This document shows, piece by piece, positions 13,480 through 45,493 of a stretch of DNA of 55,016 nucleotides; the stretch's first letter is position 1, and each line of letters begins with the position of its first letter. Below the pieces are notes generated by a model, which had not been told where the DNA came from, searched no databases, and worked only from the letters and a program-made list of their open reading frames with translations. The position numbers were made by a program, and so were the translations under genes. Source of the DNA: an uncultured Granulosicoccaceae bacterium (lineage in GTDB: Bacteria > Pseudomonadota > Gammaproteobacteria > Granulosicoccales > Granulosicoccaceae); NCBI GenBank assembly GCA_938038175.1, contig CALHRQ010000107.1, positions 1 to 55,016 of the forward strand. Direction: 5' to 3'.

Positions 13480-15520
13480 GTTCTGCGAAGCGGTCGATTG
13501 GCTTGCTGATCAACTTACAAGGTCGTTCAAAACAGAAGAACTGATTTCGTTTGTCCAGTTTCTGGATACGATTTTCAGGATGTCCCCGATCGCTTCAAAC
13601 AGCGAAGACGGTATTTGGGAGACCCTGCCCTGGCAAGTTGGCATCGCGCTGGTTGTAAGCGATCTGGATATTAGTGATGTTGGCATCCAGAAGCCGACGC
13701 AGCGCGGCATATCAAATATTTTGTTGGCTTTCGCTTTGTATGAGGCCTGCTTTCGTAAGCGAAATGTCGGCAACTGGCAGCCTCGTGATAAAGACGCTAA
13801 AACCTTTGGTAATCGGCATGTTGGTCCAGCGATCGATGTTATGCCAGAGGTCGCCAATAAGCTCATTACGAGGCGACATAAAGATCCTAACAACTCGGTT
13901 CAGTTCCGAGGGTTCCAAGATGCCTATTTTCAGGTATCCCCAGCCCAAAAAGATCAGGATTTTCGCGCCGATTCGATCGCAACTGCCGAAATTGATGAAG
14001 CCGACGGCATGCCTCTGCGAGTTCAGAAGGGTGAAGGCAATGAGCGGGGTTCTTCGCCTTTTGAATTAGTCAAAGGCCGCATGGATGCAGAAGATTATCC
14101 AAAATGCGTGGTTGTATCGACACCTCGTGTCCAGGGCAGCTCTAATATTGAAAACTACCTTTCAGAACTTGAGGTTGTTCTTAATTGGTACTTGCCTTGT
14201 CCACAATGCGATCGGCATCAGCGGCCAGTTTGGGGCGATGCGGCAGAAACGGGTGCTCATGGCGTTATCTGGGACGAAGTACATGCTGATTCAGCTTTGG
14301 ATGAGCACAGAAGTGGGCTGACCGCTCGCTATAGATGCGAGTTTTGCGATACAGAGTTCGATTTTCAGCAAATCCTTGAGCAAAATGAGCAAGGATATTG
14401 GGCTTCAGATACCGTAAAACTGGTCACCGAACCGTACGGTTGGGTGGATCCAGAGTGGAATAAACCGGTTGAAAAGCCGATCAGCGTTGGTTTTCAGTTC
14501 CCAGGGTTTTTTTCTGGAACGAATAAAGCGCTTTCAAATGGCGTGACTGGCTGGCTTCGTGCCCTAAGACACAAGAGACTAGGCGATGATAGAGCCTGGA
14601 TACGCTGGAAAAACGAATATGAGTCTGTCACGGTTGACCAGTCAACCGGTGCGATGCGGATTGACGGCAAGTCACTGCTTTCTTATCGCGAAGACTTTGA
14701 TCAGATACCAAATGAAGTCCAATATGTCGTTGGTTTCTGGGATTTAAACAATCGCCGGGGTTCCATGGGGATGTTTTGTGGCTTTGGCGCTGGAATGGAA
14801 TGTTGGATTTTGGAGTTCCATCACCTTAAGGGTTCACCGACCGAACACCGGCAGGAAATATGGAGCATAACCGAAAGACATCGCCAGCGAGTCAACGAGC
14901 GAAAAATTGAAGTCAGCGCTTGCATGGTTGACACCGGCGATATGATCACCGAAGTTCGTTTGATCTGTGATCGCAATCCGGTTCTATACATACCAACCAA
15001 AGGCTCCTCCATAAGAGGCAAGAATGCCTTCGAGTGGTCTGGAAATAACAAGCACAGTGAAGAATCACTGGGCATGATTGGTACGGACACGCTTAAAAAA
15101 CTGATTTTCACTCGATTGCAGCAAGATCGAGATGAAAGAGTTGGCAAGATTCACATTCCGATCGGTGAAGATTTTAACTTGGTCTTTCTCGAAGGTCTGG
15201 TTGGCGAAGAACTGGTTCACGTATGGCGTGATGGTAAAAACCCAGTTGAAGAGTGGCATCGTGTATCGGAGGGAATATGGAATGAGCCTCTTGATACTTT
15301 TGTAGGGTGTTATGCGGCAATAGATTATTTAGAAGCAGAGTTTGGTTTCTGTTTGCTTGATGAGCCCATCGTTGAAACGGAAGATGATGAGCCTTATCCG
15401 CCAGAAAATACCCCTAATCTGATCAGACAGGATTCAGACGACCTTATCGAAAAATACAGCGAGGCTAGTGATTTGGACGAATATGACGCAAGCTCGTTGA
15501 GAGATAAATATAGAACGTGA
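13454..15520 (+). CDS. terminase large subunit, lambda GpA family
   Basis: QKPTQRGIS (Walker A-like), IDEAD (Walker B), VSTP, CPQC/CEFC, VDTG, NEPLD. Confidence 0.93.
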   Translation: MPTSISEIEFCEAVDWLADQLTRSFKTEELISFVQFLDTIFRMSPIASNSEDGIWETLPWQVGIALVVSDLDISDVGIQKPTQRGISNILLAFALYEACFRKRNVGNWQPRDKDAKTFGNRHVGPAIDVMPEVANKLITRRHKDPNNSVQFRGFQDAYFQVSPAQKDQDFRADSIATAEIDEADGMPLRVQKGEGNERGSSPFELVKGRMDAEDYPKCVVVSTPRVQGSSNIENYLSELEVVLNWYLPCPQCDRHQRPVWGDAAETGAHGVIWDEVHADSALDEHRSGLTARYRCEFCDTEFDFQQILEQNEQGYWASDTVKLVTEPYGWVDPEWNKPVEKPISVGFQFPGFFSGTNKALSNGVTGWLRALRHKRLGDDRAWIRWKNEYESVTVDQSTGAMRIDGKSLLSYREDFDQIPNEVQYVVGFWDLNNRRGSMGMFCGFGAGMECWILEFHHLKGSPTEHRQEIWSITERHRQRVNERKIEVSACMVDTGDMITEVRLICDRNPVLYIPTKGSSIRGKNAFEWSGNNKHSEESLGMIGTDTLKKLIFTRLQQDRDERVGKIHIPIGEDFNLVFLEGLVGEELVHVWRDGKNPVEEWHRVSEGIWNEPLDTFVGCYAAIDYLEAEFGFCLLDEPIVETEDDEPYPPENTPNLIRQDSDDLIEKYSEASDLDEYDASSLRDKYRT

Positions 15521-16113
15521 AAAACTGCATCACGTTGATCGACAAAGCAGTCGACGCTAATGCGCTAGATTGCTGGCAAACTGCGAAAAACTTCACACAC
15601 GTTTTGGCATCAGAAGCGTTTGAGACTTTTCACTTGGATGGAAATTATCTTAAGGGTGAGCGTATCTGCTATGAAAACGTTGATTGCCGTTCTGTTGGTT
15701 GGGCAATACTACATGCCTGTGAAGAGTACGGGCAGCTGGATGCGATTATGCCTGTGCAGCCACACAACTGGGTACAGGAAGACTCTAATTTTTATCTTAT
15801 TCCGTGTTTTAAGATCGCTGAAGATCCAACGCCTAAAAAAGATGATAAAGATCAGGGATATGTACAGTGGCTCAAAGACGACCCATGTGGCTTTCTCGAA
15901 TACTTGCTTAACTGCCGAATATCGCGTGGAAAACCTTCAAAAAAAAGTCGCTCTGGATTCGGACGATCGTATACCTACGACCCTGGTGATGCAGAGCAGC
16001 TTAATAGGGATATACAAGTCGCTGCTAACCGCTGCAGAGCTTGCGACCCATGTAATCCGTGTCTTGACCTTGTTGGTTCAGGTCGAAGAAGCATAGCGAT
16101 CAAAGTTTGCTGA
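15517..16113 (+). CDS. gpW-like head-tail joining protein with Cys-rich N-terminal extension
   Basis: Lies between terminase and portal; GRSYTYDPGDAEQLNRDI resembles gpW; 13 Cys in 198 aa. Confidence 0.6.
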   Translation: MKNCITLIDKAVDANALDCWQTAKNFTHVLASEAFETFHLDGNYLKGERICYENVDCRSVGWAILHACEEYGQLDAIMPVQPHNWVQEDSNFYLIPCFKIAEDPTPKKDDKDQGYVQWLKDDPCGFLEYLLNCRISRGKPSKKSRSGFGRSYTYDPGDAEQLNRDIQVAANRCRACDPCNPCLDLVGSGRRSIAIKVC

Positions 16114-16116: not shown

Positions 16117-17784
16117 ATGGTTAAAGAATACGTCTCATCCTTGGGCAAGGTGGGGGGCAGCTACCCGGCTGTGCAAAATCCAGAAGGTGTTTTTCCGATG
16201 ATGCCGGAAAAACACCGTCGCGCGGCCTCTGCTCCTGATTGCAGAATCCCTGATGACCGAGAAGCGCCTAATCAGGCCTGGATGCAAGAGCGTATTCCAC
16301 TCCTGACCAAGCTTCGCTATGTTTATCGAAACGATGAATATTTTCAGGGGGCAGTTGACCAGTTTTTAGACGCTGAGATCGGTGATTCGTACCGGTGTGA
16401 ACCAGATGTTGATGGTGATGCACTGGGTATACAGCCAGAGCAAAAGCACAAGCTCGACAAAAAGATCCTCGATCGATGGATGCTCTATTCTGAATCCAAA
16501 CGTCACTGGTCTGACGCAGGCAGAAAAAAAAGTGCGACTGGTGTTATTAGAAATCACGCCCGATCAGGTCGATTGCTTGGTGAGGCCATTACGGTTATAC
16601 GTTTTCTTGATCGAGAGAAGACGAATCGACCTTGGGGAACCTGTGCTCAACTGATTGACCCATTGCGCATAGACACACCGCCAGAGTTCCAGAATGACCC
16701 TGACGTCATCTCTGGTTTTCGAGTGAATGAACACGGTGAAGAGCTTGGGTTCTACTACGCGAACAAGTACCCAATTCACTCAGGTCTATGCCAAATAATA
16801 TCAGGCAACGGTAACATTTTGAATGCAGGTATCAAGTACGAATGGATACCAAAAGAAAATGAATTCGGGCGTGAAATGTACGTCCACAGTTTTGTTGAAG
16901 ATGAGCCTGATCTAGTCCGAGGCGTACCGCCTTCTGCTTCTGCTCTGCAGACGATGATCGATCTTAAAGATCTCGATCACACAGTGAATAAGCGCGCGCG
17001 ATGGACAGCAAAAATTGCAGCGGTTATCGAATCCGACTATCCGGATGCAGAAGATGTACTGATCAAGGACAAAAAAGGCAAAGTCCAGAAAGTACCGATT
17101 GGCAACTATATCCATGCTCAGGCCTGCAGCTGGGCGGGCGATGATGGATACATGTTTGATGATCTCGAAGGGAAAAAGATGTTTCCTGGCGAGAGAGTCA
17201 AATTCAATAATCCAATTGATGAAGCCACTAATCATTCAGAACACGAACGCTCACGGTTACGCAGGGTTGGTCGTTCCCAAGGTATGTCGACCGAGCAAAT
17301 TATGCAGGACTGGTCGAAAACAAACTTTTCTGGTCAGCGTGCCGGCAGCATTGCTTTTAATCAACGCGTTCGATGCGACCGTGGTGTTTATCCTGACCCA
17401 ATCGCTAATGCAATGTTGTGTGGGTTTATTGAGGAAGATATTGCTCAAGGCAATATTGATCTTCGAGAGTTTGGAATTGAAGGCGTCGGCGAAACCCCAA
17501 CTGATCAATGGATGTGGTTTGTTTCAGGCCATAACCGAGATTATCTGACAAAGAGTCGATGGTATGGGCCAGTTCGAGAAGAAATCGACGAAGAGAAGAA
17601 ACTCAAGAAGTACAAGTTGCTGCAAGACATGGGATATCTGCCAGAACAACTACTGGCCAATGAAGTGCTTCGCATGAATTGGATGGATTTACGACGTCAA
17701 TTGAAACGAGAAGAGCTGTTCAAAGAAAAATGCGATCGAGAAGCTGAGGAGCAAGCCGAAACCAATGAAACTGCTAGCGAATAG
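16117..17784 (+). CDS. portal protein, lambda family
   Basis: LIDPLRI, VRGVP, DWSKTNFSGQRAG, WYGPVREEIDEEK; position. Confidence 0.92.
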   Translation: MVKEYVSSLGKVGGSYPAVQNPEGVFPMMPEKHRRAASAPDCRIPDDREAPNQAWMQERIPLLTKLRYVYRNDEYFQGAVDQFLDAEIGDSYRCEPDVDGDALGIQPEQKHKLDKKILDRWMLYSESKRHWSDAGRKKSATGVIRNHARSGRLLGEAITVIRFLDREKTNRPWGTCAQLIDPLRIDTPPEFQNDPDVISGFRVNEHGEELGFYYANKYPIHSGLCQIISGNGNILNAGIKYEWIPKENEFGREMYVHSFVEDEPDLVRGVPPSASALQTMIDLKDLDHTVNKRARWTAKIAAVIESDYPDAEDVLIKDKKGKVQKVPIGNYIHAQACSWAGDDGYMFDDLEGKKMFPGERVKFNNPIDEATNHSEHERSRLRRVGRSQGMSTEQIMQDWSKTNFSGQRAGSIAFNQRVRCDRGVYPDPIANAMLCGFIEEDIAQGNIDLREFGIEGVGETPTDQWMWFVSGHNRDYLTKSRWYGPVREEIDEEKKLKKYKLLQDMGYLPEQLLANEVLRMNWMDLRRQLKREELFKEKCDREAEEQAETNETASE

Positions 17785-19150
17785 GCTTTTCAATACGCCT
17801 CTACTGGTCAGCCCGACCTATTTGGAAACCGTCTGTCGTTTTATGGAAGGCAGATTGGCTGGGGAGAAAAATGTTCCTGGTCTGGTGTATGAGGGAAAAG
17901 AACCCGTAAAAACAACCAGCTTCTATTGTGAGGTTGACTCTAGCCCTGTAGTGAGTGACGAAGTCAACAGTGATGCTCCGGCACAAATAGCCATGGTCCC
18001 TGTTATGGGTTCATTATTTCAGCGACCGAGGGGAATAAGCGGAGGTCGAGACTATAAGGCTATAAAAGAAGATATCAAATTTGTACTAAGCGATAGTGAT
18101 GTGGGTGGCATTGCGCTCATGCTTGACACACCAGGCGGAGAGCTCGCTGGAAACTTTGATCTTTCACGATGGATAAAAAACATTCAAAGTGAAACTGGCA
18201 AACCAATCTGGTCAATTGTTGATGAGGCAGCCTATTCCGCAGGCTATTCGATCGCGAGCGCGGGGGAGCGAATCATAACGACTCGATCTGGCGGGGTCGG
18301 TTCTATTGGCGTGGTTGTAGCCCACGCTAACTATGAGAAAGCCATGGAAGATGCTGGCATTGAAGTCACTTACATCCATGGCGGAAAGCACAAAGTGGAT
18401 GGTAATCCTTACAAAGCACTGAGTGCAGACGTACTTGCAGAATGGCAGGCGTCTATCGATTTTCATTATGGCGACTTTGTTGAACTGGTTGCACAAAATA
18501 GAGACATGAAAGAGAGCGATATCCGGAGTACGGAAGCGCGCACTTTCAATAGCGCAGAAGCGCTTCGAATCAGACTGGTTGACGAAGTCATGACAGCCGA
18601 CGATGCATTGCGTGAGTTCTACGCTCACATCAACAAACCAAGCGGCAGTTCCGCCGCTCAACCCCAAGGAAACTCAATGAAAGATGAAGATATCAAAGCA
18701 AAGGCGGAACTCGAACAACGAGTTGAAGCCGCAGAAAAAAGAGCCACTGCCGCCGAAGATAATGCAAAGGACGCAGCCACTGCCGCCGCTGCTGAAGTCC
18801 ACAGCAGATACCAAGCCGTCCTTGGTGACCGGCTTACAGAATCGGCCACAACTTTAATCGAATCGAATCTATCGATCGAAGAAGTCAAAAAAATTATGGG
18901 TGATACATCTCCATTTAAGCCATCAGAAGCTGCTCCTGCAGCAGGATCGCAGCCCACAGATGTTCTTTCTATGATGCGATCGAATGGCGCTTTCATGGAC
19001 CCGCAAACGCATAGCCAAGGTCATGATGCACTGCAAAAGGGTGGTCATGGTGCAGCTGCAGCAGCTGATATCACAGGGGTTGGCGAGTTTGGCGCAATGC
19101 TTGTCGATGCTTATCCCCAAAACCGCGCACCTGTGAGAGGTCGATCATAA
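17765..19150 (+). CDS. S49 prohead protease with C-terminal scaffold (gpC/Nu3-like)
   Basis: LDTPGG, AYSAGYSIAS, VGSIGV, GKHKVDGNPY; internal in-frame ATG 18677 after AAGGA. Confidence 0.93.
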   Translation: MKLLANRLFNTPLLVSPTYLETVCRFMEGRLAGEKNVPGLVYEGKEPVKTTSFYCEVDSSPVVSDEVNSDAPAQIAMVPVMGSLFQRPRGISGGRDYKAIKEDIKFVLSDSDVGGIALMLDTPGGELAGNFDLSRWIKNIQSETGKPIWSIVDEAAYSAGYSIASAGERIITTRSGGVGSIGVVVAHANYEKAMEDAGIEVTYIHGGKHKVDGNPYKALSADVLAEWQASIDFHYGDFVELVAQNRDMKESDIRSTEARTFNSAEALRIRLVDEVMTADDALREFYAHINKPSGSSAAQPQGNSMKDEDIKAKAELEQRVEAAEKRATAAEDNAKDAATAAAAEVHSRYQAVLGDRLTESATTLIESNLSIEEVKKIMGDTSPFKPSEAAPAAGSQPTDVLSMMRSNGAFMDPQTHSQGHDALQKGGHGAAAAADITGVGEFGAMLVDAYPQNRAPVRGRS

Positions 19151-19578
19151 TGAGCTGTGCTCCAAAATTTAATTGCTGGCCTGAAAAAGGCGGCAAACCA
19201 TCCCTGGTGGTGGAACGCAGCTATGGCTGCACACATCAACAGATGCGCCTTACACCGGGAGTAAACTACCCCGAAAACGCACCGCTTATGGTTAATCCGG
19301 ATGACCCGACTACGGTCATGTTGTGGCAACCAGGCAATACGCTTATCGGGGTGCTTCAGTGCGCTGAAGAGGCACTTGACCAGAAGGTGCCGTGCCCTCG
19401 AGAAATCTGGTGCAACGCATGTCTGGATCCAGATTGCATTTGCTGGCCTGTCGACCCTGAAGGCGGCGAACTGCAGCAACAAATCAATGACGAAATCACT
19501 GCAATGATGCTACCAGGTGCCGAAAATATCGCACCGGGATTAAAGCTGAAGCGCCGTGTCCCAACAGAGGCCTGCTAA
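19150..19578 (+). CDS. head decoration protein (gpD-like), Cys-rich
   Basis: Position between protease and capsid; LIGVL; 10 Cys in 142 aa. Confidence 0.65.
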   Translation: MSCAPKFNCWPEKGGKPSLVVERSYGCTHQQMRLTPGVNYPENAPLMVNPDDPTTVMLWQPGNTLIGVLQCAEEALDQKVPCPREIWCNACLDPDCICWPVDPEGGELQQQINDEITAMMLPGAENIAPGLKLKRRVPTEAC

Positions 19579-19581: not shown

Positions 19582-20964
19582 ATGAGCTATCCAACCCAAA
19601 ATCCACTAATGGATCTGATGAATCAGCTCCAAACTAGTGATCCTAATGCTCAAGCATTTTTGCAGCAGCAGAGTCAACACCTGACTAATCTGGGCGCGAC
19701 ATTTAACCAGCCTGTAACAGCAAACGGTGCGATGCCAACGGTAGCTGGTCAGAATTATCGCATCTCTGCAGAAGAGCAGAAGCAGGGCATTACCAACGCC
19801 GAAATTTGCCACATGTGGCCAAGCACGCGGTTACGTCCGCTTGCTGACTTCGTTCGACCACGAAATCGGTTCTTCTCCAACACTTTTTTCAATAGAAAAG
19901 AGTTTCAGGACGAAGAAGCCGTTATGTGGCGGCGGTACTATCGCACATTTGCGATGATGCCAGAGTCTTGTCCATGTGACCCTGCGCCTGTTGGCGATAG
20001 CAACGGTTCATCCGAAGTTTATATGGCTGAGTTTGGTCACTTTGCTCTCAAGACCACACTGCAGCCATGTAAAGCCCCAGAAAGGCTCCCATCGCAAGCA
20101 CAAGGCATTCCTTGGATGCGCCTGCCACCACGGCTCCGTGTTGCACTCAAGCTAGCAGAAGATCTTGAGTATCTCGAAGACGCACGACAGAACCGGATCG
20201 AACACATGGTCATCGAAATGCTGACCAAGGGTGAGATGACGGTGCCTGTATACGACCAAATCGAGAAGAAGTTTATCGATAAGAATGTGGTCAACTTCAA
20301 GCGATGTGAATTGCTACAGGGCGGCAGCATCGAGTTCCCTTGCACCGACGACAAGTGTGTCGACCCATTGGTTGGGCTTCGTGATTGCGCGCGCCAGATC
20401 AATTGTTCTGAGCCTGGTGCCCTGGCCGACACAATCATTCTTGGTTGGCAGGCTTGTGATGAGCTAATGAAGAATCCACGTCTGTGCGAGATGATGGAAA
20501 AGAACGGTCGAGCAGGCGCGCGTATTTACGACCTGAACTTTGACTTAACGCCAAACGGTCGTTTTGGTGGTGTTGAGTTCAAAGGCCGACTCGGCAATTG
20601 GGATATCTGGTGCCACTCCGATTTTAAAGAGTGCGGACCCGGCGAAAAAGACAAGGCGATCGAAGACAAGGAATTTCTATTCCCACCTGATGGCATGCTG
20701 ATGCTGGATTCAAGCATGCTTGGTGGTTTCCAACTCTACGGTCCAACTGCTACTTGCAACACCATGGTACCGGTTGAGCGTCTGATTCAGACTTGGGAAG
20801 TATTCGATCCAGATCAATGCTGGACTAAGATGTCTATGACCATGATTCCTTTAGCTGAGCGAATCAATGCGTCTGCATTTAAGACAGTCAAAATATCTGG
20901 AAAAGCGACAACTGCAACTGCCAAAACATCGGCAGCCAAAGCGGCGGCAGGGGGTGGTAAATAA
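19582..20964 (+). CDS. major capsid protein, E family, Cys-rich
   Basis: FFSNTFF, RIEHMVIEMLTKG, KGRLGNWDIW, WEVFDP; 15 Cys in 460 aa. Confidence 0.85.
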   Translation: MSYPTQNPLMDLMNQLQTSDPNAQAFLQQQSQHLTNLGATFNQPVTANGAMPTVAGQNYRISAEEQKQGITNAEICHMWPSTRLRPLADFVRPRNRFFSNTFFNRKEFQDEEAVMWRRYYRTFAMMPESCPCDPAPVGDSNGSSEVYMAEFGHFALKTTLQPCKAPERLPSQAQGIPWMRLPPRLRVALKLAEDLEYLEDARQNRIEHMVIEMLTKGEMTVPVYDQIEKKFIDKNVVNFKRCELLQGGSIEFPCTDDKCVDPLVGLRDCARQINCSEPGALADTIILGWQACDELMKNPRLCEMMEKNGRAGARIYDLNFDLTPNGRFGGVEFKGRLGNWDIWCHSDFKECGPGEKDKAIEDKEFLFPPDGMLMLDSSMLGGFQLYGPTATCNTMVPVERLIQTWEVFDPDQCWTKMSMTMIPLAERINASAFKTVKISGKATTATAKTSAAKAAAGGGK

Positions 20965-21467
20965 TGATTGCTCCTTATGGACAGTGCTGGATAGATCCAG
21001 CAAGTCCGCTCTATAAGTTATCAGAGGGCGATAAGGTCTTTGATATTCAGAGCGGTTGCTTCATTTACCACCAGGAAGAGCCTTTCCTGGTGCGTGAAAA
21101 CATGAAATCGTGCTTTTATCGATCTAATTTACTTAAATCAGCGCAGACATTTCCTTTGTGGCATCAGCGCAATAGTAAATCGGTTGAGCATTTCACCAAT
21201 ACTGTGACCATACCGCCTGGTGAAACAGTGAAACTCGATACGCCAATTCTCCCTGCAGGTGAACTTGCTGCCAGGGTAGGGTTTGAAGCATTGACTGCCG
21301 ATGCAGTATTTGTTGCTGATACCAAGGCGATCGCTTCGGAAGCCGTCACGGATGGCACAGCCCCGCGGCCCAGTGACAACTTGTTGCTCGAGGGCAGCGA
21401 GGTTTTCCATGTCGCAAACTGCGGCACCACACCACTCAAGCTTGCCTACTCTGCATTCTGCAGCTAA
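20964..21467 (+). CDS. putative virion protein
   Basis: Coupled to capsid gene (TAATG); beta-rich C-terminus. Confidence 0.65.
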   Translation: MIAPYGQCWIDPASPLYKLSEGDKVFDIQSGCFIYHQEEPFLVRENMKSCFYRSNLLKSAQTFPLWHQRNSKSVEHFTNTVTIPPGETVKLDTPILPAGELAARVGFEALTADAVFVADTKAIASEAVTDGTAPRPSDNLLLEGSEVFHVANCGTTPLKLAYSAFCS

Positions 21468-21479
21468 GGAGAAATAACA

Positions 21480-22115
21480 GTGACCTACTTTAGTTCAACC
21501 GGCTACATGCCGGGTGTGGTGCCGCCTGCGCCAAAACCAGACATGCCTGCTGGCGATCAGCCCATGCATTCCTGTGGTGGCTGCGGCCATTGTATGCACT
21601 GTTGTGCCCAAGAAGACGTGCCGACTCCAGCCCCATGGCCTGGGGTACATAAGCTGGTCACCGGCGTATGTGAAGCGTGTGATCCCGAAACCGGCAAACC
21701 GCATCTGATCGAAAAATGCCTCGTTTGGAACCCCGAGTGCAAAAAATGGGAAGAGAAGCAATACGCGATCAAAGAGCTGCCGACGCTTTATAAAGCACCA
21801 GTAGGTGAATCGGTTGTCACATTGCCAAGCTTTGACGGTCCTTTCGAGGCACTCGATACGGATGGCAATACCATCACTTTGTATGGAAGCAGTGAAATCC
21901 CCGCCAATATGTCCGGATCTATTTTGTGCATGAATGGTGGAATGTGCTATCTGCCCGGCAACATTCCATTTCCAGACATTCCTGTCGAGATCCAGTGTGG
22001 CGGACCTCAACCAGCTGTTGATTCTGGTGTGAAGCTCTGGGTCGACAATGGCGTGGCCAAAACCTACAACCCAGAGATCGACATGTGGGTTCAAAACACA
22101 CCTTACGGAGCCTAA
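21480..22115 (+). CDS. Cys/Pro-rich putative virion protein
   Basis: AAGGAG RBS; CGGCGHCMHCC; C-terminal LWVD...KTYN...WVQ fibre-like motif. Confidence 0.7.
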   Translation: MTYFSSTGYMPGVVPPAPKPDMPAGDQPMHSCGGCGHCMHCCAQEDVPTPAPWPGVHKLVTGVCEACDPETGKPHLIEKCLVWNPECKKWEEKQYAIKELPTLYKAPVGESVVTLPSFDGPFEALDTDGNTITLYGSSEIPANMSGSILCMNGGMCYLPGNIPFPDIPVEIQCGGPQPAVDSGVKLWVDNGVAKTYNPEIDMWVQNTPYGA

Positions 22116-22119
22116 AAAT

Positions 22120-35343: not shown

Positions 35344-35742
35344 ATGAGTGGGTCATACTACCTGAAGGGCGGGCCACATTTAATACAGCCGGATCCGCCA
35401 ACGGCCACGATCCGGCCACGACTGCCATGCTCGATAGATGAGTTTGACGAATGCGATCGCGAGTTTGCAGAACAGGAGGGTGACTGGGCCACGATATCCT
35501 ACAAGCGGATCCGGGTCTGCGGGTTCTTACGAGACAATAACGTAACTAAGGCCGCCTACTCTGGAGGTGCTTCGGTTCCAGCTCAGAGCTTGCGCTTCTT
35601 TTTCAAGCTATCTGATATTCCAAATATTCGTTGTGATATGCCATTCTGGCTAAAAGATTGCCGCTATCTGGTAGGGTCTGATCCCCTGCCCTGGAACGGG
35701 TGGCATTATGTAACGTTGAAAGACTGTGGAGAGTGCGCCTAA
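35344..35742 (+). CDS. putative head-tail connector/closure protein, Cys-rich
   Basis: Size and position at start of tail operon. Confidence 0.55.
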   Translation: MSGSYYLKGGPHLIQPDPPTATIRPRLPCSIDEFDECDREFAEQEGDWATISYKRIRVCGFLRDNNVTKAAYSGGASVPAQSLRFFFKLSDIPNIRCDMPFWLKDCRYLVGSDPLPWNGWHYVTLKDCGECA

Positions 35743-36248: not shown

Positions 36249-36767
36249 ATGGCATTTGATTATCCCGTTCATGCACTGAGCTGTATTTTAGATGGACTAA
36301 AATCTTGCTTTGATGAATATGACGGCAATCAGCTATCAGTAAAATGCAATTTTAATGGTTGCTGGAAACTCAAAGAAATAACGCACCGTTGCGGTCTTAA
36401 TATCCTTATCACAAATGCAAGGCGTGATAACAATTGTCCGAGAACAATGGATGGTTGCATAGAAACTGTCACACCGATGATCATTGACATCGTATTTGAA
36501 ATTTATGCCGATAGCTGTTTAGATGATGCATCGGACAAAGCATTGAGCGGTCTTGCACTGGTTGATTATACTTTCTGTAATTGTGCCGGTGCACTACCTG
36601 TTCTTGATATAGAGCGAAGCACATACAAAATGGATCTTGCTCAAGACCGAAACGAATACACACGAACGTACCGACGTGCAAGTCAAACTTGGCAAGCCAA
36701 GACGCTGATCAGCGCCTGTGCACCGGGTGCAACACCAATAGGATGCGAAAAAAATCATGTTCTCTAA
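36249..36767 (+). CDS. putative tail terminator/completion protein, Cys-rich
   Basis: Directly before major tail gene; 12 Cys in 172 aa. Confidence 0.55.
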   Translation: MAFDYPVHALSCILDGLKSCFDEYDGNQLSVKCNFNGCWKLKEITHRCGLNILITNARRDNNCPRTMDGCIETVTPMIIDIVFEIYADSCLDDASDKALSGLALVDYTFCNCAGALPVLDIERSTYKMDLAQDRNEYTRTYRRASQTWQAKTLISACAPGATPIGCEKNHVL

Positions 36768-37404
36768 TCCATATCTATCAACAGAATGCCACAAATTTAA
36801 CGACTGTAAACTCCGTGGGTGCGGTACTAAGTTTGCTGTCGCGCCATTGAAGGCAATCGGTGCGACGCCTGATGCCACTGCGGATCTTTTGAATATCGAG
36901 TGGTGGCACTTTCGTCAGGTTCGTGAGCTTCAGAACCTCAACTGGACAGATTCCTCTTCTCCTACTGAATACGTCAATATTGGCGATTGCCGAAATCAGA
37001 TCAAATTCGAAGAGCCACGAAAGCGCTCTCTTTCAGCCACACTGAACTGGTGTAAAGACGATATCGCGCACTGCAGAATGTGTCGACCGGAAAATTGCGT
37101 GGCCTATTGCTATGTGGAGTGCGGTGAAGGACTGACATGGGATTTAAACGGAAATAACCCGGATCCAACTATCCCAGACAGCCCAATATTTGCTGATCCT
37201 ATCGGTGCAGGTTTTCCTACGAGCATTGGCATAATGGTGATCAATAGCTGCGGCAAGGATATCGAAGGCTCAAAATGCATCACTCGTTCGATCAACGCGA
37301 CTATACTAGAGGAGCACGAGTTCAACATGTGCGCAGAGCTAGAGGCATATGATGAATTGTATATTCCACCAAACGCAGGACTATTATTACCTGCAACAGC
37401 ATAA
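36757..37404 (+). CDS. putative major tail (tube) protein, Cys-rich
   Basis: LRGCGTKFAV N-terminus; directly upstream of frameshifted chaperone and tape measure; 13 Cys in 215 aa. Confidence 0.7.
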   Translation: MFSNPYLSTECHKFNDCKLRGCGTKFAVAPLKAIGATPDATADLLNIEWWHFRQVRELQNLNWTDSSSPTEYVNIGDCRNQIKFEEPRKRSLSATLNWCKDDIAHCRMCRPENCVAYCYVECGEGLTWDLNGNNPDPTIPDSPIFADPIGAGFPTSIGIMVINSCGKDIEGSKCITRSINATILEEHEFNMCAELEAYDELYIPPNAGLLLPATA

Positions 37405-37421: not shown

Positions 37422-37874
37422 ATGATTCAAGAAAAGCCTGTTTCCAACCAATCGGATATTGTTAACGAAGAACACGAGCGTTCAATAAAGTTGATGCAAA
37501 TCACTCACGAGCTTAGCAATAAGCAAATGGGGGTTAATTTCAGTAAGGATGAAATCGATCTTTATGGCCATCCCATATTCGGTCCGATCTACTGGCACCA
37601 CGTTGGTGGATGGGTACAAGATGAATACACGCCATTCGTAAAGGCCAAGCAAGATACCAGGGCGGCTATTGCAATACTATTCCATCGGGCTGAAAATGCG
37701 GATGGAAGCAGGCGTTTTAAATCCCAAGAGGATTATGAATTCCTACAGAACTTCCCACACACTGCCATCATATTCAAACTATCTTTGGCCATACTGCAAA
37801 CCGATAAAAACCCCAGCGGAGATAGCTACGTTGTATTGGAAGATGAGGTCACTGAGCAACTAAAAAACTCCTAA
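37422..37874 (+). CDS. tail assembly chaperone (gpG-like)
   Basis: Position; ends at slippery CTA AAA AAC. Confidence 0.8.
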   Translation: MIQEKPVSNQSDIVNEEHERSIKLMQITHELSNKQMGVNFSKDEIDLYGHPIFGPIYWHHVGGWVQDEYTPFVKAKQDTRAAIAILFHRAENADGSRRFKSQEDYEFLQNFPHTAIIFKLSLAILQTDKNPSGDSYVVLEDEVTEQLKNS

Positions 37875-38038
37875 ACTTCCCAGAGCTGTACGAAATGTAT
37901 CAGATCGGGAAGATGTACAACATGCTGCCATGGGAGGTGATGAAACTTAACCGATCCCAGTTGGCATTTTTGTATGCGTGCCATCGCAAAGAAAAGGAAG
38001 AAAAACCGATGGCCAAAATGAATCTATCGAATAAATGA
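37862..38038 (+). CDS. gpT-like -1 frameshift extension of tail chaperone
   Basis: A AAA AAC at 37862-37868; -1 frame reads LLNFPELYEMYQIGKMYNMLPWEVMKL... to TGA 38036-38038, which overlaps the tape measure ATG. Confidence 0.85.
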   Translation, partial: KKLLNFPELYEMYQIGKMYNMLPWEVMKLNRSQLAFLYACHRKEKEEKPMAKMNLSNK

Positions 38039-39888
38039 CGATTGAAGAACGTTATCGGTTCATCCTTGAATCTGAGGAGACCGGCGAAGGATTTGATCAA
38101 GCCGAAGAGAAGATATCTGATCTATTCGATGAAGTGCGCGAGGCCGCGCAGGTTTTTAATAACTTAGAAGACAATGGCGCAGACGCCTTTTCAGCGATCG
38201 CAGCTGAAGCTGAAAAGGCAGACACCAGCGCATCCTCGTTCTTTTCTAAACTTTCCCGAAGTTCGATTGTTTCATTTGGGACATCAGCCCTAAATGTCTT
38301 TGACCGCGCTGCGGGCGCGATTGATTTTGTCTCTGATACTTTCGATACACTTCAGGGTCAAATAACAACCACTCAAGGTGCACTCAGCGCTTTAGATCGT
38401 GGCTTTTCTACTCTTGACATTGCTCAGATAGAACAAGCGAACGCCAACTTTTTAGAACTTTCCTCCGTATCTCAGAACACACTTTCTAATATTCAACAAC
38501 AGATAGCCGTGGGTGTCGCACCTTCATTAGGTGCACTTGCTAGTGTTATCTCTCTCAATGCCACTTCTTTTGATGGGCTAAGTGAGCGGGTTGATATATT
38601 TGCTCGAGGGGCTACGTTACGAATAGCCGAGGTTAGCGATGGACTGCGTTTGCTTTTTGCTGATGAGGGTGAAGAGCTTTTACAAGCAAATTTTAAACTT
38701 GCACTTGCAGACTTTAGAAACTTTGCTAATGAGCTGATAGGCCGAGGTGACAAAGTAGATGAGGATCGCGAATCTTATCTTGCTCTTGTAGACGCCTTAG
38801 AAAAAGCAGGGGAAGAGTTCGGTAGTTCGAGTCAAGCTGTTGAGGAAGCGTTAAAGGCACAGGATGCGGCAGCAGAAGAAAACCGAAAAAAGTTTGAAGA
38901 TCTTCAAGACGAAATCGAATCTACCACTGGAAAGCTTGGTGGCCTGACGATTGGTAGTAACGCAGCCGCTGCGGCTTTGGATAAGCTTTTTGACCGAGAA
39001 TCTAACCGAATATCCGGATTGGAAATCGAAGGTCTTGGTGATCTAGATCTTTCAGGCGCTCAACTGGCGTCAAGAGGCCTTGATGACTTGGAGGCATCGG
39101 AGCTGTCACGCATTCTCGGCCTTGATTTATCGCAGAGTAAAAAACAGGAACTGCAGCAACAGCTTAAAGAACAGATCGGGACGCTTGGGCTTCAACTCGA
39201 GCTTCAGGCACAGCTTGCGATCGATGAAGCCAACTCACGGTCAGAGATACAGGATTTAGCTGCTCAATACAATGCGCAGATCGGGCGTGATGATGCTGTT
39301 CAGATACCGATCGCACTTGAAGTCATCGATAAAGAAAAAGCGGCAGCGGACTTACAGCAGACAACTGCTAACCTGGGTTTCTTAACGTCTGGCCTGAATT
39401 CAACTGCCGCAGCATTTGGAAACTTTGCCGATGCAGCAAGCTCTGAGGGCGAGTCGGCTTTTAAGGATTTCCAGCGCATCCAGGTGGCATTTTCAACCGC
39501 TGCTGCTATATCGGCTGCGGTGCAATCAGCCGGTTTTGCGGCTGGTGCTGGTCCTGCAGCTGCGTTTGCCGCTTATGCGAGCGTCGCAGGGGCGCTGTTA
39601 GGCGCTGTCGCGCAAATCCAGGCCATTAATACCAGTGGCGGGGGTTCAGCCCCAGCGAGGCTATCTGGAGGCGGTGCAACGCCATCAGGGCCGATAGGGG
39701 GTGAGCAGGCAGGTAATCGTTTCGGTGATAACGATGGAGAGGGTGATTCTGGTGGCACCCAGTTCAATTTCACTTTTATCGGTAAGGACTCGGATACGGT
39801 GACACTGGGTACGTTGCGCAATATGGCTCGAGCACTCAAGAATGATGAGGCCAGTCGCCGAGCGTTCCAGAACATATTGAATAGCTAA
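38035..39888 (+). CDS. tape measure protein
   Basis: 617-aa helical Ala/Glu/Leu-rich protein with hydrophobic C-terminal segment, downstream of G/GT; zero Cys. Confidence 0.85.
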   Translation: MTIEERYRFILESEETGEGFDQAEEKISDLFDEVREAAQVFNNLEDNGADAFSAIAAEAEKADTSASSFFSKLSRSSIVSFGTSALNVFDRAAGAIDFVSDTFDTLQGQITTTQGALSALDRGFSTLDIAQIEQANANFLELSSVSQNTLSNIQQQIAVGVAPSLGALASVISLNATSFDGLSERVDIFARGATLRIAEVSDGLRLLFADEGEELLQANFKLALADFRNFANELIGRGDKVDEDRESYLALVDALEKAGEEFGSSSQAVEEALKAQDAAAEENRKKFEDLQDEIESTTGKLGGLTIGSNAAAAALDKLFDRESNRISGLEIEGLGDLDLSGAQLASRGLDDLEASELSRILGLDLSQSKKQELQQQLKEQIGTLGLQLELQAQLAIDEANSRSEIQDLAAQYNAQIGRDDAVQIPIALEVIDKEKAAADLQQTTANLGFLTSGLNSTAAAFGNFADAASSEGESAFKDFQRIQVAFSTAAAISAAVQSAGFAAGAGPAAAFAAYASVAGALLGAVAQIQAINTSGGGSAPARLSGGGATPSGPIGGEQAGNRFGDNDGEGDSGGTQFNFTFIGKDSDTVTLGTLRNMARALKNDEASRRAFQNILNS

Positions 39889-39889: not shown

Positions 39890-40108
39890 ATGCGTGTTAA
39901 ACATCCCGCTCAGTTACCATGTTCAGGTGAATTGATGTGTATTCCGGTTGAGGATTGCCCAGATGATTGGGTATTGAGCATGACAGTATTGGAAAATCCA
40001 TCAGTCGCAGAAGAGCCTATTCTTCGCGAGCGTGAAAACGGTTACGTGATCGTCGAGTTTCCGGAAAAAGGTGACTTCCAGTTAAAGTTTGATTGCTGCC
40101 CACCATGA
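39890..40108 (+). CDS. small PKD/Ig-like tail protein
   Basis: VEFPEKGDFQLKFDCC, similar to the next two genes. Confidence 0.55.
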   Translation: MRVKHPAQLPCSGELMCIPVEDCPDDWVLSMTVLENPSVAEEPILRERENGYVIVEFPEKGDFQLKFDCCPP

Positions 40109-40350
40109 TAGCCACCAAACCAACCATCAATGGACCAGAGCTTGAGCTCTGTGCAGCACTTCCATATTTACTCCAAAGCCCTCCAGAATGCGCAGACGCA
40201 AAAACACTGCAGTGGCTTACAGCTGCGCCGTTGCTGCCGCCTGGAGTGACAGCAGATGATATTTATTTCTGGACGCCAAATTCCCTGACCACGTGGGTGC
40301 AAGTGCCAAAGGATGGCATTTATTATTTTTATGTGCAGTGCTGTAGATAA
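40105..40350 (+). CDS. small PKD/Ig-like tail protein
   Basis: VQVPKDGIYYFYVQCC. Confidence 0.55.
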   Translation: MIATKPTINGPELELCAALPYLLQSPPECADAKTLQWLTAAPLLPPGVTADDIYFWTPNSLTTWVQVPKDGIYYFYVQCCR

Positions 40351-41066
40351 TGCCAGCAACGATAACCACAACAGAGCCAAACCCGAATTGTCTGGTAGGG
40401 CTAACGCCTAAACAAATATCTGGCGAGCAGTGTCCGGGTGCCAGTCGCACACTGTGGGATTTTGTAGAACTACCAGTTGGATCTGCAGCAACCTACGCTG
40501 ATCCTTTGGCAGCAGATACGACATGGTTACCTGATATACCAGGCCAGTATCGTGTCCGATTTTGCTGCTTTTATGACTATGATACGGTCCCCGCAGTCGA
40601 CTATGAAGCTCCACCGACTGATCCATTTCTGGGTTGCCCTTTGGGTGTCGAGGCAGGTGAAGAGATTTATATTCCATTGCTAAATTGCGAGGACGCTGCG
40701 GTTGTTTGGTCTGCGACTGGTGCATTTGTTTCCATTGCCGGGGATACCTCGGGTGCCACGGTAACGACTGATGCCAATAATCCTGGACCGATATCAGTCA
40801 CTGCAGAGTGCACCACCACTGATTCGAACAACCAAAGCGTTACCACGCCTGTCACATGTGATTTTGAATCACACGCTGGCCCTTTAATGTGTGACGTCAG
40901 TCCTTTCTTAAGGGTCAGCGCTAATCTTTGCGGTGGGTATTGTGAATGTGTTGAACGAACGTTTATCGTAAAACTCGTTGGCGATGATGATGAATGCGAA
41001 TCTGATGTCCTGTGTATTTCAGTTAAGGACTGTCCGCCGACTTTTGATGAGGAGTGTGCAGCGTAA
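40350..41066 (+). CDS. PKD/Ig-like Cys-rich tail protein
   Basis: WDFVELPVGSAATYADP...WLPDIPGQYRVRFCC; 16 Cys in 238 aa. Confidence 0.65.
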   Translation: MPATITTTEPNPNCLVGLTPKQISGEQCPGASRTLWDFVELPVGSAATYADPLAADTTWLPDIPGQYRVRFCCFYDYDTVPAVDYEAPPTDPFLGCPLGVEAGEEIYIPLLNCEDAAVVWSATGAFVSIAGDTSGATVTTDANNPGPISVTAECTTTDSNNQSVTTPVTCDFESHAGPLMCDVSPFLRVSANLCGGYCECVERTFIVKLVGDDDECESDVLCISVKDCPPTFDEECAA

Positions 41067-41917
41067 TGTGGCCAGTTCCTGATCTAGAATTTATAAAAAA
41101 CTGCGAGTGTAAATCGCATAACTCTGTTTTGTTGTGGAATAACGTCTGCACTTGTGGGTGGAATATGACCGCAACGAATACTGCTCAGGGTTCAAGTATA
41201 TATAATGCATGCTCCTGTGCAGGTGGCCAGTCATTTGTTTTCAATGGATCGACAACCATTACTGCTACAGGACCAAGCCCTCTATTGATCGACCAGATAT
41301 TTATCTGGGGTCACAATATCGAAGATGCCATCATAACAGTCACTCCAAACGGTACTTTCGGAGGGCCGAGACAAGTTGGCGTTACTCAGTGTGGCCCTTG
41401 TGATCCGGGTGGTCTAACTCCTATTGTTTTGGATTTGGTCATCCCTCCAGAAAATGCTGTGACAGATACAGTTACTATTGACATTCAATCTTCTGGACTT
41501 CTTTGTATTCAAAATTTATTTATAGGACAGAAGCTGCCGGTCACCATGGCTCGGAGTTGGCAAAATCCACATGATGGAACAGATACAACACAAGATATAA
41601 AGGAATCTGAATGTGGCCCTCTTACCATCGTTACAGAGCGCATTGAAATACCAATGAATCTGCAGATGCGGTGCGTTCCCTGTGAGTGGGTGGACGAGTA
41701 CTGGCGCTGCTACCTGAAGTGGGCTCAAAAATACGGCGTCTATTTCAGATGGTCAATAAACAATGCAGAGAACGATCTCTTTTGCGGAAGACTGGATGGT
41801 CCACAGCCGCCGTCAACATTCGCTGACTATAAAATGTGCACTAAAAATCTGACTCTCAATGCGCTGGGTTACATAAGCCAGCCAGAATCAAAGTTCCTTA
41901 CTCCGGTCGATGGCTGA
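41066..41917 (+). CDS. putative distal tail protein, Cys-rich
   Basis: IFIWGHNI, IQNLFIGQKL; position after tape measure. Confidence 0.6.
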   Translation: MWPVPDLEFIKNCECKSHNSVLLWNNVCTCGWNMTATNTAQGSSIYNACSCAGGQSFVFNGSTTITATGPSPLLIDQIFIWGHNIEDAIITVTPNGTFGGPRQVGVTQCGPCDPGGLTPIVLDLVIPPENAVTDTVTIDIQSSGLLCIQNLFIGQKLPVTMARSWQNPHDGTDTTQDIKESECGPLTIVTERIEIPMNLQMRCVPCEWVDEYWRCYLKWAQKYGVYFRWSINNAENDLFCGRLDGPQPPSTFADYKMCTKNLTLNALGYISQPESKFLTPVDG

Positions 41918-43778
41918 ACAAATTGAAAGAGGGTGCGCGCCCGATCCTATTCTCATCGCAGAGTTTATACTCGACGAATGTGAACATGAGTTTGGCGTTG
42001 CACCATGCACCGCCACTGGAGATCCGTGTTACAAAGATTGGAACAATTGTAGAGACAGGTGCAACTTTCAAAAGAACTGCGACGGCAAATCGATATGGAT
42101 GTCTACATGTGATATTCCAAAGCAGCTGGGTATATTTAATTACCTGCCATGGATAGTAAAATCCAGCATTCAGTGGAATCCTTCAACCGCTTTACTAGGT
42201 GAGACATTTTCAACGCGTGGAGGTGGTTCTTTCTGCGTTCGTGACTTACCGCACACAGATCAAGGCTTTGACCCATATTGGCCTCGCGATGGCTTTATAC
42301 CCCTATGTCCAGAAGACATGTCGGGCACGCTTATATCGAGGTGGGTGGAACGGGTGAAGTATTTTGAGGGAAGAAGAATAAACTTGTACAGCGGTCACTG
42401 TGACATGGAAGATATCTGTGATTTTAACAAGCAATCTTTTCTACTTGACAACCCCAGAGGGCCAAATGCGGATTGTGAGTTCTGTTTCGAATATAAAGAC
42501 ATCATAAATGCAACAGAAGGGAAACAAGTTCCTGATCAGTCTGACAAGAAAATTGCCGTTTTTTCAGGCGACCCATTCCCATTTCCTATGACGCTCGGGG
42601 TTGATCTGGATGGCGTTCCAGATGAGGATGACCCTGACGCTGCACCCTTTTCTCAGATCGGACTGCCATTGTTGGTCGATAATTATCACCAAGGTGAGCC
42701 TGAGCAGGATGCCTGCATACTCAATACAAAACATATTTGTATTGATGGCGAAGCTCTACCCGTTCGAGCATATACAAATAATGCTGTTCCTGCAGGCTGG
42801 AATTTTTTTCTTGAAGGCAGAGCAGCATGTGGATCTACATTAAAAGCCCACGAGCGTGGTGCTGAAATTACACTCGCCAAGACCTATCCTTGCGGCATGC
42901 ACATCGGCAATGTTATATGCGATGTTCTCATAGCATCTGGTATAGAAGAAACCTTTACCCTTTGTTGTGAAGAAGACGGTCCTTCTGTTATTGACTTTGA
43001 CGCACTAAAACAATGGATTTGTGAAAACCCGCATGCTCAGTTGACCGAAGATGTCCTTATTTGTGAACCCGAAGATCTTAATGACTTGCTGAGTAGCCTG
43101 TCTGTGGACTTCGGTTTTCTTCTATTGCAAAAAAATAATCGCGTTTTTATCAGGTCTATCCGTCCAGAATGCGAAGAAGATATTGTTGTAATCAATACAT
43201 GCGATATAGAAAAACTAACCTATTCTGTTGATGATGACTTGCAGGACAGATTCTCACAAATCATTATTCGGCATGCTGTTCGGGATTGGACGCAAGCAAT
43301 AGAAGAAGGCAATCATGCGTCTACTACAAAAGTGCTTTACACCGATGTCGAAGAAGAACAGTGTGATAAAAAAGGTTGGGCATATACAAAAACAAAAGAA
43401 ATCGATACACGTTGGTTTGGCAGGCGATCTGAGTTTCTAGCGCAAACTGCTGCAGAGCGATTGCTGCTCTTATTAAACTGCCCACCTAAGCGCGCTAAGT
43501 TCTCCATACTCCAATCGAAAGCTCAATGCTTGTGTGTTGGCGATAAAGTCAAGCTTCAGTATCGTAAAGCACAAAATATGGAAGGTGAGTTTTCCGATAA
43601 GCTTTGGATGGTTCAATCTGCCGCACCGATAGAAACCGGCGTGTGCCATGAAATTGTAATGCAAGAAATGCCATTTGATGAAAGCACCTATGCCTGCTTT
43701 ACTTGCGAAGGTAATTGCCCTTCTGTGATACCGGAGCAAACGGATGACTGCAATAGCGACTGCTTGGCTGTATTCTGA
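41910..43778 (+). CDS. putative tail tip/baseplate hub protein, Cys-rich
   Basis: CYKDWNNC, YFEGRRINLYSG, GRAACGS..KAHERG; 35 Cys in 622 aa. Confidence 0.7.
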   Translation: MAEQIERGCAPDPILIAEFILDECEHEFGVAPCTATGDPCYKDWNNCRDRCNFQKNCDGKSIWMSTCDIPKQLGIFNYLPWIVKSSIQWNPSTALLGETFSTRGGGSFCVRDLPHTDQGFDPYWPRDGFIPLCPEDMSGTLISRWVERVKYFEGRRINLYSGHCDMEDICDFNKQSFLLDNPRGPNADCEFCFEYKDIINATEGKQVPDQSDKKIAVFSGDPFPFPMTLGVDLDGVPDEDDPDAAPFSQIGLPLLVDNYHQGEPEQDACILNTKHICIDGEALPVRAYTNNAVPAGWNFFLEGRAACGSTLKAHERGAEITLAKTYPCGMHIGNVICDVLIASGIEETFTLCCEEDGPSVIDFDALKQWICENPHAQLTEDVLICEPEDLNDLLSSLSVDFGFLLLQKNNRVFIRSIRPECEEDIVVINTCDIEKLTYSVDDDLQDRFSQIIIRHAVRDWTQAIEEGNHASTTKVLYTDVEEEQCDKKGWAYTKTKEIDTRWFGRRSEFLAQTAAERLLLLLNCPPKRAKFSILQSKAQCLCVGDKVKLQYRKAQNMEGEFSDKLWMVQSAAPIETGVCHEIVMQEMPFDESTYACFTCEGNCPSVIPEQTDDCNSDCLAVF

Positions 43779-45493
43779 TGGCGATTGATAATTACACTCC
43801 GGTGCAGGTAAACGCAGGTGATTGTGTTGGTTACGAAGAGATCAATACACTCTTTTCAAATCTAAAATCCATTTACAATACTGCGCGAGAAAGTACCAAT
43901 AAGATCATATGTCAGCGTGTCAATGAAACCATACGGTATGGACAAAACGGGACTGATACTGCTGATCTCAATTCAAATAATACACCTATAAACAACACCT
44001 CAAGCGTCAATGATGACACTGGTTGCTTTGTTATTCAGCAGCCTACGATACCAATCGGCGATGACCCAGAAGAGAAAAAGATACTCGCCTTACAGATAGG
44101 CGTTTTTCATGATTACATTATCACGGGAAATAATGATGATTCCGACTTCACTATCGGTCTTGATCTATGGGTCGAATGTGATGGGGAACGCGTATGGTCT
44201 GGAACATCATCGTCCGCCAATTTTGCCTCATTTAATTGTAAGCGATCATCAGAGATACTACTCTGCGCTGAAACACGAATTACCACAGTTGGTGGGATAA
44301 GTCTTATTTATAGAGGGACTACCTTAACGCTTTGCGGCGGTATTCTCTGCGTTCAGCAATTTGATAATGACTCGAGTACTCCGGCATTCTTTTGCCCGCC
44401 TTGTCCATTAACAAGCGATAAAAAGCCAGGACGTGAGACGCTACATCTTCTTTATCAGAACATACTCACACTATGTAATTTCTTTCAGGAGGGCGGACAG
44501 GTAGAGTCTTGTTTTGACTTTAATTTCAATGATGATCTAACGCATCCTTTGGTCACAAATGTTTCTGGTGAAACCACTTATTTAGCGATAGGACAAGTCA
44601 CTGTTTGCGCTCGTATAAAGCCGCTTGATTTTGCCACTAGCGCGCAATATGTCATTACTCCACAAATAGGGTGCCAAGGTGAGCAGTCAAGATGTCTGAG
44701 TCAAACCATGAGGCTAAGCCTCCGTGATGATTCTCCTCTGCCCTCTTTTGATTGCGTCAGCATCCCAGTATTTGTGTGCGGAACTTGTCAACCCGGTCAG
44801 ACGATCAGCGCTGGATTTTTATCCTATGAGGACTGCACCGGCGTACCCGATCCATTCGGTACAGTGGGTGAGAATGTAGAAGTCACTTATATTGAACAAA
44901 GTTACTGTCTATACACCTGGGAACAGGTAGCCGTACCCGGTCTAACAGCGTTAAAACGACCTAACCCCAGCTGCCTTGATGTTGATACATTCGCCAACCT
45001 GATTACAAAGATGGACCAGCTTCAGGAAATTGTATGCGATCGCACACCGATTAATTGCTTTTTTGAAGAGAATAAAGAAATAATTCCAAATGGATCTTCA
45101 AAGCTTCTTCAACCCGCAGAGGCTGCACCAAACCCGATCCCAACCGGCTGGCCTTTCCCCCGTAAACTTACCCTACTCTTGGACTTTGCTTTCTGTATAA
45201 CGTTAGGAACAGTAAGTAATCCTCAGCCCGTAAGAATTCTCGCTTACTTGGAAATAACCTGCGGCGGGAACGTTATCAAAACGATAGGGCAAGGTGACAC
45301 AGACCCATTTGATTTTAATATTTTTCAGACTACTGGAGGTCGAAGACGATGTTCCCGTGTCTTTTCACGGATATGTTGCAATCTAACCTGTCCGGTGGAT
45401 CAGCCAATTGAAATCAGACCCGTGTTTTTGGATTTTGATGGTACAGTTGTTCTTTATGATGTCGAGTTAACCTGTCAACAGTTCGGGTTCTGA
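43778..45493 (+). CDS. putative tail fibre/receptor-binding protein with three helix-plus-beta modules
   Basis: Three helices (INTLFSNLKSI, LHLLYQNILTL, FANLITKMDQL), each followed by a beta-rich domain; 30 Cys in 571 aa. Confidence 0.6.
   Translation: MAIDNYTPVQVNAGDCVGYEEINTLFSNLKSIYNTARESTNKIICQRVNETIRYGQNGTDTADLNSNNTPINNTSSVNDDTGCFVIQQPTIPIGDDPEEKKILALQIGVFHDYIITGNNDDSDFTIGLDLWVECDGERVWSGTSSSANFASFNCKRSSEILLCAETRITTVGGISLIYRGTTLTLCGGILCVQQFDNDSSTPAFFCPPCPLTSDKKPGRETLHLLYQNILTLCNFFQEGGQVESCFDFNFNDDLTHPLVTNVSGETTYLAIGQVTVCARIKPLDFATSAQYVITPQIGCQGEQSRCLSQTMRLSLRDDSPLPSFDCVSIPVFVCGTCQPGQTISAGFLSYEDCTGVPDPFGTVGENVEVTYIEQSYCLYTWEQVAVPGLTALKRPNPSCLDVDTFANLITKMDQLQEIVCDRTPINCFFEENKEIIPNGSSKLLQPAEAAPNPIPTGWPFPRKLTLLLDFAFCITLGTVSNPQPVRILAYLEITCGGNVIKTIGQGDTDPFDFNIFQTTGGRRRCSRVFSRICCNLTCPVDQPIEIRPVFLDFDGTVVLYDVELTCQQFGF

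Follow-up and report, generated by a model that had tools for sequence, protein, structure and literature searches.

Cysteine-rich putative outer proteins in a lambda-type phage contig and their co-occurrence with a compact bromoperoxidase-like gene

Disulfide-stapled phage particles are already known. In Jabs, a siphophage of Mycobacterium abscessus, a disulfide network is reported to extend over capsid, connector, tail and tip, with cysteines (Cys) of the N-arm and the E-loop forming bonds between capsomers; these bonds are proposed to arise at or after lysis, and the sections of the report drawn on here leave open whether a host or a phage catalyst is involved (bioRxiv 10.64898/2026.07.24.740622). 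How disulfide-linked shells come from assembly in a reducing cytoplasm is described in the same report as an open question. In the Agrobacterium phage Milano, capsid, neck and tail are likewise described as disulfide-linked (PMC10491603). Here we analyse a stretch of 55,016 nucleotides (hereafter the window), which is the entire contig CALHRQ010000107.1 (C107) in a 3.2-Mb, 64%-complete genome bin of an uncultured Granulosicoccaceae bacterium. Its gene content marks the contig as that of a phage whose head module is of the lambda type, and the structural operon encodes both Cys-rich, likely outer proteins and a compact enzyme resembling vanadium bromoperoxidases. As a Cys-rich particle, the window phage adds a strong new instance to a kind already described; the new element is the co-occurrence of this enzyme with Cys-rich outer proteins in seven of seven carrier phages.

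The window phage resembles Jabs in being a non-contractile tailed phage with Cys in the capsid E-loop (a predicted E-loop in our case), but host and capsid lineage are unrelated, the bonds are seen by cryo-electron microscopy in Jabs and inferred here, and no catalyst is named for Jabs. Milano (MK637516) has, like the window phage, a Cys-poor portal (3/420 residues) and protease (1/256); it differs in its contractile tail, its lower Cys content (capsid 2.2%, others 1-3%) and the lack of a haloperoxidase-like gene.

A preliminary description of this DNA had set Cys-rich outer structural proteins against nearly Cys-free ejected or transient ones. Its hand counts are all correct: 13/198 residues for the open reading frame (ORF) starting at 15517, 10/142 at 19150, 15/460 for the major capsid protein, 12/172 at 36249, 13/215 at 36757, 16/238 at 40350, 35/622 at 41910 and 30/571 at 43778, as well as the low values for the tape measure (0/617), the ORF at 37422 (0/150), the protease (2/461) and the portal (8/555). 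The ORF at 41054, given as a distal tail protein with 15/283, counts 16/287 if its GTG is taken as the start and 15/283 if the following ATG is. The pattern is in fact wider than was first noted, with a block at 20964-33820 and the ORFs at 35335, 35700, 39890 and 40093 likewise Cys-rich. When ORFs are pooled, the 22 assigned by position to the outer virion contain 341 Cys among 7588 residues (4.49%), against 78/5144 (1.52%) in 22 non-structural ORFs (Fisher p 3e-22); the inner or transient set (portal, protease, chaperone and tape measure) holds 10/1783 (0.56%). ORFs of the bin average 1.15% Cys, and no other contig of the bin reaches the level of this one. Base composition can be rejected as the cause, as the preliminary description had maintained, because the off-frame frequency of TGY is alike in the outer, inner and non-structural sets (2.1/5.4, 2.1/5.6 and 2.6/4.4%); both TGT and TGC are in use as Cys codons. 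The other half of the original contrast is less telling: tape measures have no Cys in four of four cultured control siphoviruses, so a Cys-free tape measure is ordinary and only the gain of Cys in outer proteins needs explaining. Selection for that gain is supported by conservation, by the lack of a composition effect and by the comparison of Cys fractions with homologues that had been suggested.

For the capsid protein this comparison is clear. Searching 1.84 billion representatives yielded 24 matches; the alignment excludes two of them, a 1334-residue multi-stretch match and a 231-residue fragment. The window protein has 3.3% Cys, about ten times typical relatives; it and its six nearest homologues form a clade of seven with 2.9-4.6% Cys, while 16 more distant full-length gpE outgroup proteins have 0-1.2%. 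Among control capsids (76 ORFs from lambdoid loci in IMG/VR, obtained from the best 80 of 582) the median is 0.3% and the maximum 1.2%; these controls were drawn with a pattern from Cys-poor proteins, and hence depict the usual state rather than an unbiased base rate. No residue type is better conserved in the clade than Cys (0.59; tryptophan 0.54), and Cys 132, 163 and 344 are invariant in its seven members, in columns where the outgroup has no Cys. Since the Cys columns of the clade pair with many different residues in the outgroup, codon reassignment is unlikely. The AlphaFold model, which matches the capsid proteins of YSD1, Chi and lambda, places a CPC motif (residues 130-132) in the loop of a long hairpin, which we take, from the HK97 fold, to be the E-loop. 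At its N-terminus the protein is also extended by about 55 residues, rich in Gln (19582-19750, forward strand), that relatives do not have. Single queries with the capsid or the enzyme revealed no close relatives in IMG/VR or among cultured phages, and a scan with the capsid clade returned two outgroup loci only, both Cys-poor and both without the enzyme gene. Judged from sequence, the extra Cys are likely used for disulfide cross-linking across the particle, and we hold it highly probable that the virion is disulfide-linked.

What might supply the oxidant? The preliminary description overlooked the more novel element of the operon, a haloperoxidase-like gene (34513..35307, forward strand) preceded by two small Cys-free ORFs (33864..34516), with ATGA overlaps between them and the enzyme gene; the first of the two encodes a predicted membrane segment and coiled coil and is weakly spanin-like (phrog_739, E 0.005). 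The enzyme, of 264 residues, is assigned to the PAP2 superfamily by motifs, profile and fold, although the match of the window copy to PAP2 itself is weak, and its family is about 260-290 residues in size. Its motifs read K169-x6-R176-P, H198, A203-N204-H205 and R243-x5-H249-x3-D253. Motif 1 (K-x6-RP) and motif 3 (R-x5-H-x3-D) of the vanadium bromoperoxidases are thus present, and both histidines (His) of motif 2 are there, H198 and H205; K169, R176, H198, H205, R243 and H249 do not vary across the 66 family sequences aligned. The pattern P-x-H-P-S-x-x-A-G-H and the second motif-2 His match the Acaryochloris marina bromoperoxidase, and the Ser-Gly of the PSGH of class A acid phosphatases (PhoN/PhoC) is not retained. 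Among proteins of solved structure, the profile matches vanadium bromoperoxidases best (E 2e-7) and acid phosphatases less well (E 8e-5), and a structural aligner gives the model (predicted local distance difference test score 76) a Z of 17.5 with the Corallina enzyme (8VGX, root-mean-square deviation 4.1, 254 aligned) and 16.6 with that of Ascophyllum, against 12.6 with the PhoN acid phosphatase. The three motifs, the second motif-2 His and a helical-bundle fold are shared with the bromoperoxidases of A. marina (5LPC), Corallina (8VGX, 1UP8) and Ascophyllum (1QI9). These are proteins of about 560-670 residues, whereas the window enzyme is far shorter, has ANH in motif 2, is phage-borne and belongs to a separate compact group. 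Taking motifs and model together, we lean towards a halide-oxidising peroxidase as its probable identity. No report of phage haloperoxidases or phage thiol oxidases was found in the literature searched, most subscription journals lying outside its coverage, and no paper was found there on direct thiol coupling by vanadium haloperoxidases.

Scans of IMG/VR with alignments of the family, taking a profile E < 1e-30 as a strong match to the compact type, identified six other carrier records (G001, G002, G003, G004, G361 and G362). In each of the six, outer proteins are rich in Cys, and the scaffold, tape-measure or ejection proteins are poor in it. The capsid protein has 11/407 Cys in G001 (34 kb, HK97-type) and 12/404 in G003 (61 kb), with tape measures of 0/1114 and 0/1102 respectively; in the podo-like G002 it has 7/336, beside a 2674-residue protein with none. 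In the crAss-like G004 the capsid has just 3/487, and the next genes 25/399 and 42/603. The capsid of G361 (47 kb), recognised by position, has 17/406, in line with the Cys richness predicted for that record beforehand; the corresponding count in G362, a 21-kb fragment flagged beforehand as possibly another clade, is 10/334. As a common measure we took Cys in the capsid gene and the 6 kb downstream (for G003, two genes only). By this measure seven of seven carriers lie at 2.8-4.1%, eleven of eleven cultured phages with capsids related to those of G001 or G002 at 0-0.7%, and 53 lambdoid controls at no more than 1.7%, so that none of the 64 controls reaches the level of the carriers, whose own early regions have 0.9-1.8%. 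An all-against-all search identifies the enzyme as the sole gene common to the seven carriers, and it was detected neither in the 48 control records searched (14 of them at least 90% complete) nor in a further 300 genomes from the class of the bin. In the enzyme tree the window protein and those of G001, G002, G003 and G361 fall into two separate supported groups, while G004 and G362 are unplaced long branches; on this basis the gene looks mobile across unrelated phages. It adjoins a holin and an M23-like peptidase gene in G361, and adjacency to holin- or lysin-type genes is weak in G004, G002 and the window.

Building on the enrichment in Cys, on its conservation within the capsid clade, on an enzyme whose motifs and fold are intact and on the co-occurrence of the two traits in all carriers, we propose the following as our preferred, though tentative, reading. 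Particles would be assembled with free thiols in the reducing cytoplasm, where phosphate would restrain the enzyme. Lysis would then free the particles and the enzyme, which has no signal sequence, into seawater, a source of bromide, vanadate and peroxide. Hypobromous acid (HOBr) made there by the enzyme would, by known chemistry, turn virion thiols into sulfenyl intermediates, which would then form bonds with Cys nearby, and co-transcription of the enzyme gene with the virion genes would provide for the supply of oxidant. Vanadium haloperoxidases are described as making hypohalous acid from halide and peroxide (PMC11312541), and the reaction of HOBr with cysteine is reported to have a rate constant of about 1e7 per M per s and to give sulfenyl intermediates that can become disulfides (PMC7873122). 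Our working analogy is peroxidasin, which according to the same source cross-links collagen IV via HOBr (PMC7873122): in both cases a peroxidase would make HOBr that cross-links an extracellular structural scaffold, but peroxidasin is a haem enzyme of animals that forms a sulfilimine bond and has no homology to the window enzyme. The general form of the proposal, that unrelated marine phages have repeatedly acquired a compact vanadium bromoperoxidase and, once lysis has occurred, use its hypobromite, made from the bromide and peroxide of seawater, to close hundreds of virion thiols into disulfides, is more tentative still. If true, it would be the first case of a phage encoding a catalyst for disulfide formation in its virion and would give peroxidasin a viral counterpart; it would also tie phage maturation to the halogen and vanadium chemistry of the sea and add a minimal haloperoxidase. 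A small soluble candidate enzyme and the pattern across carriers and controls make the question left by Jabs a testable one; if the enzyme is unrelated, the remainder is an unusually Cys-rich lambdoid case of a known kind.

Other accounts have to be weighed, both of the Cys and of the enzyme. The preliminary description had offered metal-thiolate cross-links beside disulfides; disulfides stand as the likely use, and the metal option is disfavoured. No oxidant would be needed for zinc or iron thiolate sites to arise in the cytoplasm, and CxxC pairs do occur in small number (four of them in the ORF at 21480), but CxxC spacing in the outer proteins shows no excess (18 seen against 14.3 +/- 3.6 expected in shuffles) and their His content is lower (1.0% against 2.3%), which argues against sites of the zinc-finger type. 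Both solved Cys-rich tailed phages considered here, Milano and Jabs, use disulfides according to their reports, and a coat that binds metals and has no disulfides seems to us highly improbable. The enzyme might instead be a PAP2-superfamily phosphatase or phosphotransferase unrelated to Cys, linked to Cys-rich coats by chance or by co-transfer with fibre genes. Its catalytic motifs are the same as those of class A acid phosphatases, whose size is similar; acid phosphatases fill the top rows of a Foldseek search (E 2e-3, with no match at E 0.001), and two fibre-like genes are common to the window and G003. On the other hand, the second motif-2 His and the motif pattern shared with A. marina point to a bromoperoxidase, as do the structural Z scores, and no fibre gene is common to all carriers; we consider a phosphatase decidedly unlikely.

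The link between enzyme and coat could also have been brought about by habitat, since carriers may share similar marine settings in which both traits are common. Air or seawater would then oxidise the virion spontaneously, the enzyme having another role in an oxidising, halogen-rich niche, such as peroxide removal or the halogenation of signals or matrix. In keeping with this, Milano and crAss001 lack the gene (in a search with G001 as positive control) and the enzyme matched no cultured phage record, so that it is not needed in general; close homologues sit in Bacteroidota chromosomal surroundings in three cases (L038, L039 and L041), the position of the gene differs between carriers, and haloperoxidases that brominate quorum signals are reported to spread by horizontal transfer (PMC11312541). 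Marine origin alone is nevertheless insufficient, because phi19:1, Arctus, JQ, HMO-2011, CRP-9 and HTVC033P, cultured phages of marine origin whose capsids are related, are all Cys-poor, and a run of six in six independent carriers needs a local base rate well above 30% (0.3^6 = 7e-4); habitat as the sole driver appears doubtful. Causation might also run the other way, hypohalous acid being made for another aim, such as weakening of envelope or biofilm at lysis, with a cross-linked or thiol-rich coat, as in the sacrificial antioxidant coat first suggested, shielding the particle. This predicts the same one-way association, from enzyme to Cys-rich coat but not the converse, and lysis-type genes do stand beside the enzyme gene in G361 and, more weakly, in G004 and L038. 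Position-conserved capsid Cys nonetheless fit defined pairs better than bulk scavenging, and methionine, itself a scavenger, is lower in outer (1.5%) than in non-structural proteins (2.1%); we regard reverse causation as unlikely. Curing of the particle by hypobromite has further points to answer. HOBr is reported also to over-oxidise thiols and to attack other residues (PMC7873122); the enzyme gene does not lie beside lysis genes in G001, G003 or G362; in L020, a phage fragment that encodes a haloperoxidase of the long type, the structural operon is Cys-poor; motif 2 of the window enzyme reads ANH, where 58 of 66 family members and 5LPC have AGH; and the gene neighbourhoods examined cover a small number of the 66 proteins in the family.

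Outside the carriers, one close homologue of the enzyme lies in a phage-like fragment without structural genes. The bacterial copy in L038 (9989-11547) is found just upstream of an Amidase_3 gene, near insertion-sequence-like genes, and is possibly a phage remnant. The nearest non-phage relatives of the family are short metagenome records (L002-L010), probably eukaryotic transcripts, of which four group with G004 in the tree. A separate long-type haloperoxidase of about 520 residues is present in three viral records (L020, L214 and L022), and the remaining IMG/VR rows are distant matches to long-type enzymes, several in giant-virus or very large records.

The structural genes of the window all lie on the forward strand. 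The head module has profile matches for a gpA terminase, a lambda-type portal (16117..17784; PF05136, E 5e-45), an S49 head maturation protease/scaffold (17765..19150; PF01343, phrog_53) and a gpE-type major capsid protein (19582..20964; also by its structure model). These labels of the preliminary description are upheld, as is that of the hub-like ORF at 41910 (PHROG E 3e-17). Those of gpW-like protein, decoration protein, tail terminator and major tail protein follow from gene position, profile searches having given no match and the ORF at 36757 no atlas match: the ORF between terminase and portal (15517..16113) has a head-tail joining position, that at 19150..19578 a decoration-gene position, and four Cys-rich ORFs (35335..37404; 7/135, 10/182, 12/172 and 13/215) the position of neck and tail tube. 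A likely tail assembly chaperone (37422..37874) is placed by position and a weak phmmer match to a control gene (E 0.001), and a short tape measure protein (38035..39888) by position, composition and a weak profile match (phrog_1538, E 0.004). Six Cys-rich tail-tip ORFs (4.7-6.9% Cys), including the hub-like one and the gene preceding it, occupy 39890..45493. Directly 3' of them is a Cys-poor glycoside hydrolase 16 gene (45495-46430, forward strand), possibly for a polysaccharide-degrading tail component.

Between capsid and enzyme genes, 20964..33820 holds eight Cys-rich ORFs (2.4-5.7%) and one Cys-free ORF of 66 residues, with an inferred virion location and likely encoding capsid fibres or decorations; the ORFs at 30065 and 32654 have homologues in G003. 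One product of this block (22048-24165, forward strand) is an Asp/Gly-rich repeat protein of 705 residues with a single, regularly placed Cys per repeat, and looks like a calcium-binding fibre or adhesin.

As to host and source, the contig ends without a terminal repeat, and the bin organism is an unproven, candidate host only. No tRNA genes were found in the contig. One sequencing run, labelled marine metagenome and possibly the source, holds the contig, and no RNA runs are listed as holding it. A serine recombinase gene (54005-54643, forward strand; product 46% identical to one in G002) and a LexA-like repressor fragment (46972-47223, reverse strand) suggest a temperate lifestyle. Distant from the structural operon is a glycoside hydrolase 108 endolysin with a peptidoglycan-binding domain (6054-6614, forward strand). 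A phage gene at 7550-8251 (forward strand) has a DnaJ J-domain in its N-terminal part (NCBIfam E 1e-23). Short repeats at 5152-5469 lie within the ORF 4845-5459, and another frame there reads as GQRH/GQRQ repeats.

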